Source of the DNA: Vicinamibacteria bacterium
GTDB taxonomy: Bacteria > Acidobacteriota > Vicinamibacteria > Marinacidobacterales > Marinacidobacteraceae
NCBI GenBank assembly: GCA_963555995.3
Contig: OY821641.1
Location: 1,152,001 to 1,216,000 of the forward strand
DNA: 64,000 nt
Direction of reading: 5' to 3'
Positions 7,630 through 40,938 of the stretch are shown in pieces. A program made the translations under genes and the position numbers. The notes below the pieces were generated by a model. That model searched no databases and was not told the origin of the DNA. It worked only from the letters and a program-made list of their open reading frames with translations. The stretch's first letter is position 1, and the number at the start of each line of letters is the position of its first letter.

Positions 7630-7808
7630 CAGTCTGTGGAGAAAGTGACGCGGGCACCGAGAGCGGCGAGGCGCCCGGCTGACGAGGCGCGCGAGGGAGG
7701 AATACCGAGTGTATTCCGACCGAAACGCAACGATGAGGGCCGCGTAGCGGCGCGTTTCAGCCGGGATGGATCGCCGCTCGAATGCCGGGTGACTTTTTTC
7801 ACAGGCTG
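7630..7808. mobile_element. 179-bp MITE-like element (copy 1)
   Basis: Imperfect terminal inverted repeats CAGTCTGTGGAGAAAGTGAC / GTGACTTTTTTCACAGGCTG and internal hairpin GGAATACCGAGTGTATTCC. Homologous to 22907-23175 and 40760-40938; no transposase. Confidence 0.82.
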
Positions 7809-22783: not shown

Positions 22784-22906
22784 ATGGCGCGCGGCGCTGC
22801 GCGCTGCGCGCCATCGTTTTTCGTGGGGAGGGGAAACCCCTCCCCACACCTCTCCCCCGCGGCGCTGCGCGCCGCGAAGGGGCGGTGGCAGACTTTCTCC
22901 ACCCAG

Positions 22907-23175
22907 CAGCCTGTGGACAAAGTCACGCGGCATTCCCGAGCCAAGAGGGATAGGAGCCGGGTGAACCCGTCCCCTGTCCCTCTCGCTCCGGGGTCTGCGC
23001 GGGGCTCACGCCCCGCTAACGACGCGAACGCCGATGCATCCCGCCCGAACCGCGCCTCTACGAGGCGCTCTGCGTTGCGTTTCGGTCGGAATACACTCGG
23101 TATTCCTCTCTCACGCGCCTTGTCAGCCGGGCGCCTCGACGTTCTCGGTGCTCACGTCACTGTATCCACAGGCTG
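22907..23175. mobile_element. MITE-like element (copy 2) with about 90-bp internal hairpin insertion
   Basis: CAGCCTGTGGACAAAGTCAC ... GTCACTGTATCCACAGGCTG followed by CTAG; colinear with 40760-40938 apart from extra 22936-23026. Confidence 0.82.
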
Positions 23176-30259: not shown

Positions 30260-31000
30260 CTATCCGCGTTTCTTCCCGCCGCCCAGAATCGCGGCGCGAA
30301 GCGCCCGCGACTGCTCCGAAAACCAGGTGTCCAGGAACCCTTCCCGCTTCTCGGCGGCCTGGCTCAGGGCCCGCTCCGCGAACCCGGCGCGGAGTTCCCG
30401 CTTCGTGTGGGTGTACGCCTCGCGAGGAAGGGCCCCCAGCTCTTCGGCCCGCTCCGCCGCCCGCTCCGCCAGGTTTCCGGGTTCGGCCAGTTCGTGAAGG
30501 AAGCCGTTCGCGAGGGCGTCCTCGGGTCCCGTGAGCCGGCCGCGCAGGAGCACCTCCGCGGTCCGCTCCGGCGGAATGGCCGCCCGCAGGACCTCGAAGG
30601 CCGCCGCCGGAAAGATGACCCCGAGCTGCACTTCGGAGACGCCAATCCGATAGGCGCCGGTGGCCCCCATCCGGACGTCGCAGGCGGCCGCGAGGATCGC
30701 GCCGCCCGCCACCGCGTGGCCGTTCACCGCGGCGACGGTGGGGCAGGGGAAGAGGAAGAGCCGGCGGACGAGCTCGTCGAAGGCTTCGACGAACGCGCCC
30801 ATCGCGTCGCGGTCCTCCGGCAGTCCCGCGAGATCGAGACCCGCCGAAAAGAAACGGCCCGTTCCGGTCAGGACCAGCGGCCGGCCGCCCGCTTCGGCTT
30901 CATCGAGGCTCGCCCCCAGTTCGGCGACCAGCGCCGGGTCGAGGGCGTTCGCCGGCCCGTGGCGCATGGCGGCCACGAGGGCCGACGGCGCGGACGACAC
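30260..31000 (-). CDS. Enoyl-CoA hydratase/isomerase (crotonase superfamily)
   Basis: FFSAGLDL, VAAVNGHAVAGG, IGVSEVQLG. Confidence 0.9.
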   Translation of the reverse strand: MSSAPSALVAAMRHGPANALDPALVAELGASLDEAEAGGRPLVLTGTGRFFSAGLDLAGLPEDRDAMGAFVEAFDELVRRLFLFPCPTVAAVNGHAVAGGAILAAACDVRMGATGAYRIGVSEVQLGVIFPAAAFEVLRAAIPPERTAEVLLRGRLTGPEDALANGFLHELAEPGNLAERAAERAEELGALPREAYTHTKRELRAGFAERALSQAAEKREGFLDTWFSEQSRALRAAILGGGKKRG

Positions 31001-31025: not shown

Positions 31026-31655
31026 TTACTCGAGTCCGGCCAGGACTTCCATCAGCGGTTCGTAGTCCTCACGGATCTGGTAGTCGTAGTTGACGTACTG
31101 GAGGACGCCCTCGCGATCGATCACGAAGGTCGCGCGCGAAGCGTAGGTCGCGCCGTTGATCTCGAGCGGGGTCACGCCGTAGGCGCCGACGACCTCCGCC
31201 TGGCGGTCCGAGAGCAGCACCAGTCCCGGCAGTTCACCCTCGGCGGCCGGCGCCACCATCATTCCGGATTCCTCGCCCATGTTCTGGAGCCAGTTCCACT
31301 GGGAGAAGGGGGTGTCCACGCTGATTCCGAAGACCTGGGTGTCCGCATCCAGAAACTTCTGGATGTCGTCCTTGTAGGACGAGAACTGGAGCGTTCAACC
31401 ACCCGTCCAGTCGGCCACGTAGAAGGCCAGCACGATGTTCTTCCTGCCCAACGCGGCGCTCATGTCGAGCTTCGCCGCGCCCGGCGATTCGCCCGCGGTG
31501 GAGGGCAGCGGATTCGGGAACATGGGCGCCTTGTCTCCCACCCGGAGCGAGACGTCCTGCGCCACGGCCTCAGGAATCCCCGCGGCCGCGGCCAGCCCGG
31601 CAACGAGCCCGAGGGCCAGGACGCCGGACAGTCGGCGGCTCTTGATGTGTTTCAT
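31026..31655 (-). CDS. Exported peroxiredoxin (AhpC/TSA-like) with in-frame UGA (probable selenocysteine) at 31395-31397
   Basis: ORFs 31395-31655 and 31026-31319 are one frame: LRVGDKAP...VLAFYVADWTGG*TLQFSSYKDDIQKFLDADTQVFGISVD...LLSD...SRATFVIDREG. The stop falls at the peroxidatic TxxC position. Confidence 0.85.
31346..31382 (-). promoter_or_regulatory. Candidate SECIS: two hairpins 3' of the UGA
   Basis: mRNA after UGA: 12 nt, then UCGUCCU-ACA-AGGACGA, then CAUCCAGA-AGUU-UCUGGAUG. Confidence 0.55.
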
Positions 31656-31846: not shown

Positions 31847-32323
31847 GTGACACTGTCCTTCCGCGCCCGCCTCGAGGCGGAAGTGCGCGAACTCGAGGAA
31901 GAGCTGCACCTGCGGCTTCCCCAACAGATCAAGGAGGCCCGCGAGCACGGCGACCTTTCCGAGAACGCGGAGTACGAGGCCGCGAAGGACCGGCAGAGCT
32001 ACGTGGGCGCCCGCCTGGCCCAGCTCAAGGGCCGCCTCGCGGATCTGTCCATGGTGAGCATGGACAACATTCCGGCGGACCGGGTATCGCTCGGCAGCCA
32101 GGTCGCGGTCGTGGACCTCGACACCGACGAGGAGTTCCGCTACGAACTCGTGGTCAGCGAGGACGTGGACGCCGCGGCGGGCAAGGTATCCACCGGCTCC
32201 CCGATCGGGAGGGCGCTCATGGGAGCCCGGGTGGGAGACGAGGTGAGCGTGCACACGCCGCTCGGCGAGCGCGAGTTCGAGATCCGCGAACTCCGCACGA
32301 TTCACGACCGGGATTCCTCGTGA
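31847..32323 (+). CDS. greA: Transcription elongation factor GreA
   Basis: AREHGDLSENAEYEAAK, SPIGRALMG. Confidence 0.95.
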   Translation: MTLSFRARLEAEVRELEEELHLRLPQQIKEAREHGDLSENAEYEAAKDRQSYVGARLAQLKGRLADLSMVSMDNIPADRVSLGSQVAVVDLDTDEEFRYELVVSEDVDAAAGKVSTGSPIGRALMGARVGDEVSVHTPLGEREFEIRELRTIHDRDSS

Positions 32324-33672
32324 GAACCACAGGCAGGCCCCGCTCCGCCATCACGGCCATCGGGCTCGCCCTCGCGGTCGCGGGACCGCCCGCCGCCGCG
32401 GCGGCCGCTCCGGACGTCCATCAGGTGGACGTGGTGGACATCATCCACTCGGTGTCCGCCCGCCGGGTGCTGACGACGATCTCGGCGGCGGAGGAGGCGG
32501 GCGCCGGTCTCGTCCTGATCCGCCTCGATACTCCGGGAGGTCTCGACACCGCGATGCGGGAGATCATCGAGGCGATCCTGAACAGCGCGGTGCCGGTCGC
32601 CGTCTTCGTGGGTCCCTCCGGTTCGCGGGCCGCCTCCGCCGGCTACCTGATCACCCTGGCGGCGGACGTCTCGGGGATGGCGCCGGGCACCAACATGGGT
32701 GCGGCGACCCCCATCGCCGGGACGGGCGGCGAGATGCCCGAGACCCTGAGCCGGAAGGTCGAATCCGATGCCGCGGCCTACCTGAGGTCCATCGCCGAGC
32801 GCCGGGGGCGCGACGTCGCCCTCGCCGAGCAGGGTGTCACCGAGGCGCGGAGCTGGACGGCCTCGGAAGCGCTCGACGCCGGCCTCGTTGACCTCATGGC
32901 CGACGACACCGGGGAGTTCCTGGCGGCCGTCCACGGCCGGACCGTGACCCGGATTGACGGGACGGAGGTCACGCTCGATACCGCCGACGCGCTCATCGTC
33001 GAGACCGAGATGAGTTTCCGGGACCGGGCCCTTTCGGTGATCGCCAACCCGAACCTGGCGGTGCTGCTCGGGATGATCGGCCTGCTCGGGCTCTACCTCG
33101 AGTTCTCGAACCCCGGCCTCCTCATCCCGGGCATTCTCGGAGGCATCGCCCTCCTGCTCGCCGCCTTCGGCCTCAACTTCCTGCCGGTCAGCCTTCTCGG
33201 AGTGCTGCTCCTGCTCGCTGGAATCGGCCTCCTGACCGCCGAGGCGCTCACCCCGTCGTTCGGCATAATGGGGCTCTCGGGAGCGGCAGCACTGGTGATC
33301 GGCCTTCTTTTCTTCTTCGAGGAGCAATCCCTGCCCACGCCCGCGCTGACGTTGACTTGGGGACTCGTCGTTCCGTCCGTCCTGGTGTTCGTGGTCCTCG
33401 TGTTCTTCCTCGGTCAATTGGTGGTCCGCGCCCAGCGGCGTCCCGCGGTGACCGGGCGGGAAGGGATGATCGGCCTGGTGGCCACCGTGCGCAGTGACAT
33501 CCCGTCAGACGGCGAGGGCAAGGTGTTCGTCCACGGCGAGTTCTGGGACGCCGTCGCCGCGGCCCCGGTGAACGCGGGCGAGCGGGTCACGGTGCTGGCG
33601 GTGGAGGGGTTGATCCTCCGCGTCGGCCCGGCCTCCAAACAACCTCTTGTAAAGCAAGGAGCTGATTCATGA
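32320..33672 (+). CDS. nfeD: NfeD long-form membrane-bound ClpP-class serine protease
   Basis: [26 protein letters not shown] bundle, C-terminal OB fold [12 protein letters not shown]; GTG start overlaps the greA stop. Confidence 0.9.
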
Positions 33673-34451
33673 CTTTCGGACTTCCCCTGGGAGCCCTGGT
33701 AGCCATCGCGTTCGCGGTGATCTTCGTTCTCAACTGGATCAAGATCCTGAACGAATACGAGCGCGGCGTGATCTTCCGGTTCGGCAAGCTGTTGCCGAGG
33801 CCCCGGGGTCCGGGCCTCGTGCTGGTCTTCGCGCCCATTGATCGGATGGTGCGGATCAGCCTGCGGCTCATCGCTTTCGACGTTCCGCCCCAGGACATCA
33901 TCACCCGCGACAACGTGTCGGTGAAGGTGAACGCGGTGGTGTTCTTCCGGGTGGTGGACCCGACCAAGGCGGTCATCGAGGTCGAGGACTTCCTGTACGC
34001 GACCTCGCAGCTTGCGCAGACCACGCTCCGCAGCGTCCTCGGTCAGGTGGACCTCGATGACCTGCTCTCGCAGCGCGACCAGTTGAACGTCCAGTTGCAG
34101 GGCATCCTCGACAAGAGCACCGATCCCTGGGGGATCAAGGTGGCCTCCGTCGAGGTCAAGCACGTGGACCTGCCGGGCGAAATGACCCGGGCGCTCGCGC
34201 GCCAGGCCGAGGCGGAACGCGAGAAGCGCGCCAAGGTCATCCACGCCGAGGGCGAGTTCCAGGCCTCCGCCCAGCTTGCCCGAGCCGCCGAAGTCGTGGG
34301 CACGCATCCGCTGGGCGCCCAGCTTCGTTACCTGCAGACGCTGACCGAGATCGCCACCGAGAAGAACTCGACCATCATCTTCCCCCTCCCGCTCGACCTG
34401 GTGAAGCCCTTCCTCGAGCTGCATTCGGGCAAGGACTCCTCGAAGGACTGA
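33669..34451 (+). CDS. SPFH/stomatin (slipin) family protein
   Basis: [50 protein letters not shown]. Confidence 0.94.
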
Positions 34452-39151: not shown

Positions 39152-40759
39152 ATGCTTCGCTCGCTGACCCCGGTGGCCTCCGCCGCCGCTCTCGCGGCGG
39201 CCCTTGTGTTCGCCGGCTGCGGCGGCGCGCGGTTCGACGAGGACCGCCTCCTCGCGTACATCTCCACGCTGTCCTCGGACGAGTTCGGCGGACGGGCGCC
39301 GGCCTCTCCCGGCGAGGAAAAGACCGTCGCCTTCCTGACCGCCGGGTTCGAGGAACTCGGACTCGAACCCGGCAACCCGGACGGGACCTGGGTCCAGGCG
39401 GTGCCCCTCGTGGGGTCCACCGCGATCACCATGCAGGCTTCTTCGGACCCGGGCGGCGACTGGGAGCCCGCGGTGGACTTCGTCGCCTGGACGAAGCGGA
39501 TGGCGCCCGAGGTCAGCGCCTCCGGGCAACTGCTCTTCGTCGGCTACGGCGTCCAGGCGCCGGAATACCGGTGGGACGACTTCGGAGACACCGACCTCGC
39601 CGGCAAGATCCTGGTCGTGCTGGTGAACGACCCGCCGGGAGAGCACCACTTCGGCGGCGACGCGATGACCTACTACGGCCGCTGGACCTACAAGTTCGAG
39701 AAGGCCGCCGCGATGGGAGCGCTCGGAGCGCTGATCGTCCACGAGACCGGTCCGGCGGGATACCCGTGGGAAGTGGTGAGCGGGTCCTGGACGGGCGAGC
39801 AGTTCGACCTGCGGACGCCCGGCGGCAACCTGGACCGGCTGGAGATCGAGGGTTGGATATCCCGGGAGCGGGCGGTCTCGCTCTTCCGCGCCGCCGGGCT
39901 GGATTTCGAAGTGGCCCGCCGGGCGGCCGCCCACCCGGACTTCACGCCGATCCCCCTCGACGTCACCGCAAGCTTCGCGCTCGAGACCTCGCACCGCGAG
40001 ATCGCTTCCAACAACGTGGTGGCCCGGATTCCCGGGTCGGAAGCGCCGGGCGAGACGGTCATCTACACCGCGCACTGGGACCACCTCGGCACCGTGCTCG
40101 GGATGGAGGGCGACAACATCTACAACGGCGCCTTCGACAACGCCACCGGCACCACCGGCCTGCTGGCGCTGGCGCGGGCCTTCATGGCCGAGGGAGCGCC
40201 GCGCCGCAGCATCCTGTTCCTCGCGGTGACGGCGGAGGAGACCGGGCTGCTCGGTTCCCGTCACTACGCCCGGAACCCGCTCTATCCGTCGGCGGAGACG
40301 GTCGCGGCCATCAATATGGACGGCATGAACGTCTGGGGCCGCACCAACGACATCACCGTGGTCGGCCTCGGGCAGTCGGAACTGGATGACATTGCGGCGG
40401 CGGTCGCCGCCGAGAGCGGACGCGTTCTGACCCCGGACCCCGAACCGGAGAAGGGCTTCTACTACCGCTCCGACCACTTCGAGTTCGCGAAGGTCGGGAT
40501 TCCGGCGTTCTACCCGGACGGCGGGGTGGACTTCATCGGCAGGCCTCCCGGGTTCGGCATGGAGGCGCGGGCCACCTACGTCTCCGAGGCGTACCACAAG
40601 CCCGGGGACGAGGTGCAGGACTGGTACGACCTCTCGGGGATGGTGGACGACCTCGAGTTCCTCTACCAGATGGGCCGCCGTCTCGCCGACTCGGACATCT
40701 GGCCCGAGTGGAGCGAGACCAGCGAGTTCCGCGCGGCGCGGGAGGCCGACCGGCCCTAG
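39152..40759 (+). CDS. M28 family metallopeptidase lipoprotein with PA domain
   Basis: AGGAGG RBS, lipobox FAGC, YYGRWTYKFE, AHWDHLG, GAFDNATG, TAEETGLLGS, RSDHF, YHKPGDE. Confidence 0.92.
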   Translation: MLRSLTPVASAAALAAALVFAGCGGARFDEDRLLAYISTLSSDEFGGRAPASPGEEKTVAFLTAGFEELGLEPGNPDGTWVQAVPLVGSTAITMQASSDPGGDWEPAVDFVAWTKRMAPEVSASGQLLFVGYGVQAPEYRWDDFGDTDLAGKILVVLVNDPPGEHHFGGDAMTYYGRWTYKFEKAAAMGALGALIVHETGPAGYPWEVVSGSWTGEQFDLRTPGGNLDRLEIEGWISRERAVSLFRAAGLDFEVARRAAAHPDFTPIPLDVTASFALETSHREIASNNVVARIPGSEAPGETVIYTAHWDHLGTVLGMEGDNIYNGAFDNATGTTGLLALARAFMAEGAPRRSILFLAVTAEETGLLGSRHYARNPLYPSAETVAAINMDGMNVWGRTNDITVVGLGQSELDDIAAAVAAESGRVLTPDPEPEKGFYYRSDHFEFAKVGIPAFYPDGGVDFIGRPPGFGMEARATYVSEAYHKPGDEVQDWYDLSGMVDDLEFLYQMGRRLADSDIWPEWSETSEFRAAREADRP

Positions 40760-40938
40760 CAGCCTGTGGACAAAGTCACGAGGCATTCAAACGCCGATGC
40801 ATCCCGGCTGAACCACGCCTCTATGAGGCGCTCTGCGTTGCGTTTCGGTCGGAATACACCCGGTATTCCTCCCTCACGCGCCTTGTCAGCCGGGCGCCTC
40901 GGCGTTCTCGGTGCTCACGTCACTTTGTCCACAGGCTG
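40760..40938. mobile_element. 179-bp MITE-like element (copy 3), followed by a REP at 40959-40981
   Basis: CTAG|CAGCCTGTGGACAAAGTCAC ... GTCACTTTGTCCACAGGCTG|CCAG; same length as 7630-7808. Confidence 0.85.

Follow-up and report, generated by a model that had tools for sequence, protein, structure and literature searches.

An in-frame TGA divides a peroxiredoxin gene of a Vicinamibacteria bacterium into two annotated fragments; the gene is genuine and belongs to an established kind of selenoprotein gene. The gene was found in a stretch of 64,000 nucleotides, here called the window. It varies from this kind in two ways: the enzyme, predicted to be exported, has no Cys, and the signal downstream of the UGA is a pair of hairpins under strong constraint. 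The explanation that is probable as a whole is that of an exported, Cys-free selenocysteine (Sec) peroxidase with a BCP/PrxQ-like fold, in which the UGA would be recoded by SelB bound to the second hairpin, with the first hairpin serving as a spacer.

The gene and its surroundings

The peroxiredoxin gene is encoded on the minus strand, from position 31655 to 31026 of the window, and contains 209 codons followed by TAA. Its sole in-frame TGA is codon 87 (31397-31395, minus strand), placed in the context FYVADWTGG-UGA-TLQ. The same frame continues with GISVD and SRATFVID, and none of its 209 codons encodes Cys. Standard ORF calling breaks the gene at the TGA into pieces of 86 and 97 amino acids. 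The sequence-only reading had proposed that the split ORF track hides one frame of 209 amino acids, with these motifs and free of Cys; all these points were confirmed on the minus strand. The product scores 79.1 bits with the AhpC/TSA profile PF00578 (cut-off 26) and is a protein of the peroxiredoxin fold.

Next on the minus strand, after a gap of 25 nt, comes an enoyl-CoA hydratase gene (30260..31000), recognised in the ORF track and by profile search; the two genes are probably co-transcribed. A similar ORF, recognised by the likeness of its N-terminus, lies shortly 3' of the peroxiredoxin gene in 6/6 relative loci examined. The greA, nfeD and SPFH genes are divergent and upstream (window 31847-34451). 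A search at the peroxiredoxin gene for a sigma-70-like promoter returned none. Contigs from four metatranscriptome runs cover the gene, three of them spanning the TGA; these were not counted as evidence of expression, since contigs cannot show transcription and these come from related strains. The gene is also covered by contigs of one marine and one sponge metagenome run.

The window also carries a strongly folding repeat of about 180-200 nt, at about 7630-7808, 22903-23175 and 40758-40938, which has 133 blastn matches in the genome. In one relative (G008), a copy of this repeat lies in frame in the 5' (signal-peptide) part of the peroxiredoxin gene, adding about 65 codons and no stop.

Two adjacent hairpins under selection as RNA

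Two perfect stems follow the UGA. Hairpin 1 (31366..31382, minus strand) has 7 bp and a loop of 3 nt, ACA in this gene; its stem begins 12 nt and its loop 19 nt after the UGA, and its first codon is that of Ser92. Hairpin 2 (31346..31365, minus strand) has 8 bp and an AGUU loop that starts after 37 nt, and abuts hairpin 1 with no linker. The 59 nt after the UGA fold with z = -3.69, and none of 200 shuffles was as stable. Among 3000 synonymous re-codings none folded as well as the native sequence and 12 gave two perfect hairpins, a configuration also found in 7 of 3000 random genomic 57-mers. Both stems had been noticed in the sequence-only reading, and the shuffles and re-codings place them beyond chance.

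The comparison was based on 197 loci, of which 156 fit the pattern, corresponding to 138 distinct genes: 38 of the family studied here (family A), 84 other Sec genes (family B) and 16 Cys genes. Nearly all of family B belongs to one exported family of Acidobacteriota that carries a C-terminal Cys. The 41 loci outside the pattern are all TGA genes of the B type, 38 of them with a G-loop at 23 nt (a count that is not de-duplicated). The UGA and the downstream frame are conserved in 38/38 distinct genes of family A, and all 15 pairs of both hairpins hold in each of them (570/570 cells, 13 of these via G-U). No compensatory double change was observed among the 15 pairs in the 38 genes. As no pair is altered on both sides, covariation lends no support to the hairpins; the covariation test covered 23 of the 30 loci fetched and its shuffle control was uninformative.

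The synonymous sites point to selection on the RNA. Of the degenerate codons that are well conserved, those within the hairpins are synonymously invariant in 11 of 12 cases, and those elsewhere in the gene in 7 of 99 (Fisher p 8e-10, which is overstated, as neither sites nor genes are independent). The exceptional, variable codon is that of Tyr94, whose third base falls inside loop 1. The most constrained codon window of the gene is that of codons 92-103. All 38 genes encode Phe101 by TTT and Asp103 by GAT, codons with a genomic use of 4% and 15%, respectively, both of which are required for stem 2. The frozen synonymous sites and the rare codons kept in the hairpins indicate that selection acts on both stems as RNA. 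An Rfam search gave no match.

Two further codon preferences were observed close to the UGA. The Thr codon that follows it (31392-31394, minus strand) is ACG in 37/38 genes of family A, 74/84 other Sec genes and 4/16 Cys genes. The two Gly codons that precede it (31398-31403, minus strand) are mostly the rare GGT (28/38 and 27/37).

Hairpin 2 as the likely SECIS and hairpin 1 as a possible spacer

The bacterial SECIS (bSECIS) consensus, in the available text of PMC13188914, consists of a loop of 3-9 nt, a stem of 4-16 bp, an energy of at most -7.5 kcal/mol, a G at the first or second loop position and a spacing of 16-37 nt from the UGA; the same spacing range is given by PMC10778597. Hairpin 2, with a loop of 4 nt, a stem of 8 bp, -10.4 kcal/mol, G in the second place and 37 nt, falls within all four constraints, its spacing being the upper limit of the range. 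Its AGUU loop is present at 37 nt in 38/38 genes of family A, an invariance that partly reflects the protein, since AGUU lies within Lys-Phe codons that are also conserved in the Cys relatives. The loop of hairpin 1, on the other hand, takes five sequences in the 38 genes (ACA 29, AUC 3, AUA 2, ACC 2, AUG 2), none with a G in its first two places (0/38), which puts it outside the G constraint.

The same difference emerges from ensemble sampling, which placed a G-loop hairpin at 14-30 nt in 0/38 genes of family A, 74/84 of family B and 3/16 Cys genes, and one at 31-45 nt in 38/38, 1/84 and 3/16, respectively. With a stricter stem filter, which is insensitive, the near G-loop was retained in 31/84 genes of family B and 2/38 of family A. 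The comparison with other UGA genes of the genome, suggested with the sequence-only reading, shows that five of six are able to form a G-loop stem at 18-21 nt. For three of these six genes the stem is not favoured by folding, and for one more it is favoured in a shorter window only; in the gene for an exported UxxC protein, the stem is retained in 20/20 relatives. The G-loops seen in other Sec genes lie at 18-23 nt. From its agreement with the four constraints, at the 37-nt limit, hairpin 2 is likely to be the SelB-binding site, and SelB would contact the G-U of its AGUU loop. The sequence-only reading had suggested a possibly non-canonical two-hairpin SECIS. Its non-canonical part did not stand for hairpin 2, which alone agrees with the consensus; it stands in so far as a separate, G-less and conserved hairpin 1 lies outside it.

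Hairpin 1 would fold out 17 nt and stack on hairpin 2. The junction would then lie 12 nt from the UGA and loop 2 at an effective distance of about 20 nt, like in an ordinary SECIS. Such a role as a stacked spacer is evenly poised between being right and wrong. In structural work the conserved loop G lies close to the entrance of the mRNA, some 20 nt past the UGA, and the SelB hinge can absorb spacing differences (PMC4605307, available text). A spacer may thus be unneeded, given this hinge and a distance of 37 nt that is still inside the published 16-37 nt range. Hairpin 2 could then be an ordinary SECIS acting alone at the limit of the range, with hairpin 1 kept for another purpose, such as preventing hairpin 2 from misfolding or pacing the ribosome. 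The agreement of hairpin 2 with the consensus and the flexible hinge speak for this possibility. However, it leaves unexplained why subtracting the 17 nt of hairpin 1 gives 20 nt, within the 18-23 nt of the other Sec genes, and the distance from UGA to upper stem in E. coli fdhF is 11 nt (PMC8659212, available text). It is considered a weaker candidate, less likely than the stacked spacer.

Predicted export, catalysis and regeneration

Residues 1-32 (31560..31655, minus strand) resemble a signal peptide, with a basic start, a hydrophobic core and AVA before QD, as judged by eye and by hydrophobicity only. By a hydrophobicity heuristic, a hydrophobic N-terminal stretch precedes the domain in 38/38 orthologues. 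Acidobacteriota possess a periplasm, and from these N-termini export of the protein to this compartment is highly probable. The twin-arginine pair is not conserved, which suggests the general export route.

No NCBIfam model was reached over its cut-off: the protein scores 41.6 bits with the PrxU model NF040737 (curated cut-off 270) and 42.9 bits with the BCP/PrxQ equivalog NF006960 (curated cut-off 140), so that the likeness to BCP/PrxQ is one of fold only. An AlphaFold model with C in place of U (pLDDT 76.9) finds its best matches in Bcp4 and Bcp1 of Sulfolobus, Bcp4 being the top match (E 7e-12, TM 0.61). The alignment with Cys homologues proposed in the sequence-only reading places the TGA (31395..31397, minus strand) at the peroxidatic Cys, both in homologues and in solved peroxiredoxin structures, which supports the earlier claim of a UGA at the peroxidatic site. 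The TxxU motif and the conserved Arg are both present. They comprise Thr84 (31404..31406, minus strand), U87 and Arg174 (31134..31136, minus strand; aligned with the R of Bcp4 and invariant in two alignments), with Thr, U and Arg invariant. The alignment further reveals an insertion of about 15 residues.

A feature absent from the sequence-only reading is the residue at the Pro place of PxxxTxxC/U, which is Val80 (31416..31418, minus strand). The motif reads VxxxTxxU, and Val is found seven residues before the peroxidatic residue in 38/38 orthologous genes. This places the family outside the strict motif, although it is likely still peroxiredoxin-like in action. PxxxTxxU is described as highly conserved in PMC13188914, and the motif Pro as absolutely conserved in peroxiredoxins in PMC3322552, each in its available part. 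The change from Pro to Val was also considered as an adaptation specific to Sec, as the first comparisons contained no Val or Ile among the Cys genes. This proposal was rejected: the tree offers just two independent pairs, and the Pro is likewise missing from 14 of 122 Cys-motif relatives, where its place is taken by Val (in 8 of them), Ile, Leu or Ala (22 of 147 proteins had been excluded as having no motif match).

By analogy with aligned peroxiredoxins, it is very likely that Sec87, with the help of Thr84 and Arg174, would reduce hydroperoxides and be converted to a selenenic acid. The formation of a selenenic acid and its subsequent resolution by a thiol are general chemistry (PMC7231847, available text). 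A different function is improbable but deserves mention, namely that the selenoprotein is mainly a redox sensor, a relay or a reductase of another substrate, and not a peroxide scavenger. The absence of the motif Pro and of a resolving Cys, the insertion and the failure to reach any curated model would suit such a role, and PrxL of Caulobacter is a Prx-like envelope protein devoid of peroxidase activity (PMC3322552, available text). This is countered by the invariant catalytic Thr, U and Arg, by the BCP peroxiredoxins as top fold matches and by those Cys-motif relatives in which the Pro is likewise replaced by one of Val, Ile, Leu or Ala.

With peroxidase chemistry at Sec87 as the preferred reading, the route of regeneration has to be considered. 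The nearest Cys relatives contain CxxxxC where this family has UxxxxS, with Ser92 at the place of the resolving Cys. The earlier claim of a 1-Sec enzyme holds, as no Cys follows the UGA in 38/38 orthologous genes. An outside thiol is proposed on account of this lack of a resolving Cys. The genome contains one DsbD-family gene of CcdA size, with a TlpA-like gene close downstream, as well as further WCxxC proteins with hydrophobic N-termini; the labels TlpA-like and thioredoxin are our assumption from the motifs of these proteins. By analogy with PprX (PMC3322552), the TlpA-like and other WCxxC proteins, together with CcdA, would be the likely reductants of the peroxiredoxin. The specific route, in which an outside thiol, most plausibly that of a TlpA-like periplasmic thioredoxin fed by CcdA, would regenerate Sec87, has about an equal chance of being correct or not. 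PprX offers a precedent for periplasmic peroxiredoxins fed by TlpA (PMC3322552, available text).

Selenocysteine machinery and the reading of the UGA

The sequence-only reading would have been overturned by a genome devoid of Sec machinery or by relatives with no conserved TGA, and neither was the case. The genome carries selA, selB and selD over their profile cut-offs and a tRNA-Sec at 69.7 bits. The peroxiredoxin gene was matched in 34 of 61 genomes searched, all 34 with exactly one TGA, at protein identities of 59-95%, and the TGA is located at the catalytic site in all 30 loci fetched. The holders elsewhere comprise 26 of 27 other genomes of the same family and 4 of 8 and 3 of 19 genomes in two families of the order, and no genome (0/6) from other families of the class had the gene. 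The genes are related by descent, so counts over the 38 orthologous genes are not counts of independent events. SelB was found in 57/61 genomes and in 33/34 of the holders; it was not found in the remaining holder (G032), whose genome is 91% complete. Taken with the machinery, this conservation makes it almost certain that Sec is inserted at codon 87.

The family is invisible in annotation, as databases carry only versions in two fragments. Full-length database matches do not exceed 41% identity. At least 120 fragments of the family are present in protein databases; among those listed, 54/54 N-terminal fragments stop at the motif and 0/66 C-terminal fragments have Cys. The closest homologues are records of Vicinamibacteria, Acidobacteriota and Ca. 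Marinacidobacterium. A phylum-wide search returned 2 of 301 at E 1e-22, a threshold that was too strict.

The genomic SelB matches its family over the cut-off, including a C-terminal stretch, and this bears on the possibility that hairpin 1 is the SelB site despite having no loop G, with hairpin 2 in a secondary role, as a pause site or for stability. Hairpin 1 lies where a SECIS is usually found, all its pairs form in each of the 38 genes, and some bacterial SECIS elements fail the consensus (PMC13188914, available text). Nevertheless, its loop varies in sequence, the SelB is of the usual family, and this same SelB must read the G-loop hairpins of the other Sec genes. Such an arrangement is regarded as quite improbable, and hairpin 2 is retained as the SelB site.

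The other Sec genes were identified by a heuristic scan, which may miss genes. It yielded six further likely TGA genes, namely those of the exported UxxC Prx-like, OsmC-like, CYCXC, MerB-like, rhodanese and SelW-like proteins, with only the CYCXC and SelW models over cut-off. The CYCXC, MerB-like, rhodanese and SelW-like genes have their in-frame TGA at a Cys-like place. A motif scan of the genome for a Sec formate dehydrogenase, GPx and MsrA gave none that was convincing. The UxxC gene (G000:C1:1619913) is placed about 1.1 kb from the OsmC-like TGA gene (1621024) and is matched in 50/61 genomes, nearly all with TGA. It was considered as a dedicated partner of the peroxiredoxin and rejected as not specific, since it is present in 32/34 holders but also in 18/27 non-holders. 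The SelD (G000:C1:2910735-2911673) has Cys (CGGC) and is apparently fused to a long N-terminal domain, which we take to be an FAD/NADH oxidoreductase by its appearance.

A reading of the UGA as Trp or Cys is extremely unlikely. Some database proteins of a related family show W at this place, most likely by choice of the gene caller; ordinary genes of this genome use TGA as terminator, the tRNA-Trp has the anticodon CCA, the only tRNA with UCA is the tRNA-Sec, and Trp would be unable to serve in catalysis. That the TGA reflects an error of sequencing, or a nonsense mutation of a dead gene, is suggested by nothing other than the split annotation; this is already refuted and has a negligible probability, given the TGA shared by all 34 genomes down to 59% identity, the database fragments that terminate at the motif and the strong conservation past the TGA.

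Origin of the selenocysteine

In the tree, family A forms one clade (support 100/99) beside Cys proteins of the CxxxxC type from records of Kryptonia and Bacteroidota (99/93), and further trees give the same placement (96/91; 90). The AU test gives p = 0.04 against family A joined with family B. Residues 87-114, the segment that bears the SECIS, are closer to B (46-64% against 32-36%), and the branches of both families are long. The favoured interpretation of these sequences is that family A would have gained Sec independently, with a newly built signal.

Family B itself is a large exported Sec/Cys peroxiredoxin family of Blastocatellia, Bryobacterales and other Acidobacteriota. In the tree its Sec forms are interspersed with its Cys forms, and the TGA is translated as W in some of its database entries. 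A Rokubacteria record contains a different Sec peroxiredoxin (PLDWTPG-U), with no downstream Cys and no G-loop hairpin at 14-45 nt.

Comparison with known systems

The prototype of the Sec peroxiredoxins reportedly comes from Eubacterium acidaminophilum (NCBIfam PrxU, NF040737). The gene shares with the known members the UGA at the peroxidatic site, the TxxU motif, PF00578 and the Sec machinery; it differs in the Val in place of the motif Pro, in having no Cys, in the predicted signal peptide and in a fold match that is BCP-like and not AhpC-like. Sec peroxiredoxins have long been known, the Sargasso Sea set containing 43 of their genes (PMC1088965, available text), and the family is listed in the available text of PMC13188914.

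PprX of Caulobacter crescentus (PMC3322552, available text) is, like the present protein, of the BCP/PrxQ type and exported (a prediction in the present case), the two being likened by description only, and this genome too has genes for a DsbD-family transporter and TlpA-like proteins. PprX, which is fed by ScsB, has Cys in PXXXTXXC along with a resolving cysteine, whereas the present family has Sec and no resolving residue, and the sole DsbD-family match of the genome is of CcdA size. The other exported Acidobacteriota Sec/Cys peroxiredoxins (AFTGG-U/C) have in common with family A a start that resembles a signal peptide, TGG-U, often the Val and about 35-45% identity. Unlike family A, they keep a C-terminal Cys and contain a single G-loop hairpin at 23 nt.

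In comparison with the bSECIS consensus and fdhF, hairpin 2 is alike in its 4-nt loop with G then U, its 8-bp stem, its location in the coding region and its 37 nt. The difference is the G-less, equally conserved hairpin that occupies the usual place of the upper stem and abuts hairpin 2. A search of titles and openings of abstracts returned no bacterial SECIS with a spacer hairpin and no exported Cys-free Sec peroxiredoxin; its scope took in few subscription papers, with the original work on bSECISearch and on the spacing in fdhF lying outside it, and published selenoprotein catalogues may include the family. What may be new is a SECIS made of two stacked hairpins, a sequence-free spacer at the usual position and a distal G hairpin that would bind SelB, in a Cys-free periplasmic peroxidase working on selenium alone; this combination is advanced tentatively, with somewhat less than an even chance.

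Significance

The published spacing of 16-37 nt is wide compared with the approximately 20 nt of structural models, and the gene provides a testable case of how a distant loop might be brought into place by a folded-out spacer. If this holds true, search tools based on a single-stem SECIS would miss genes, and engineers would be freer in siting a SECIS within coding regions. Sec could also be gained where the codons at 20 nt leave no room for a loop G. Separately, a single Sec and the absence of Cys in an enzyme of the peroxiredoxin fold, predicted to work in the oxidising periplasm, pose the problem of how the selenenic acid would be resolved.
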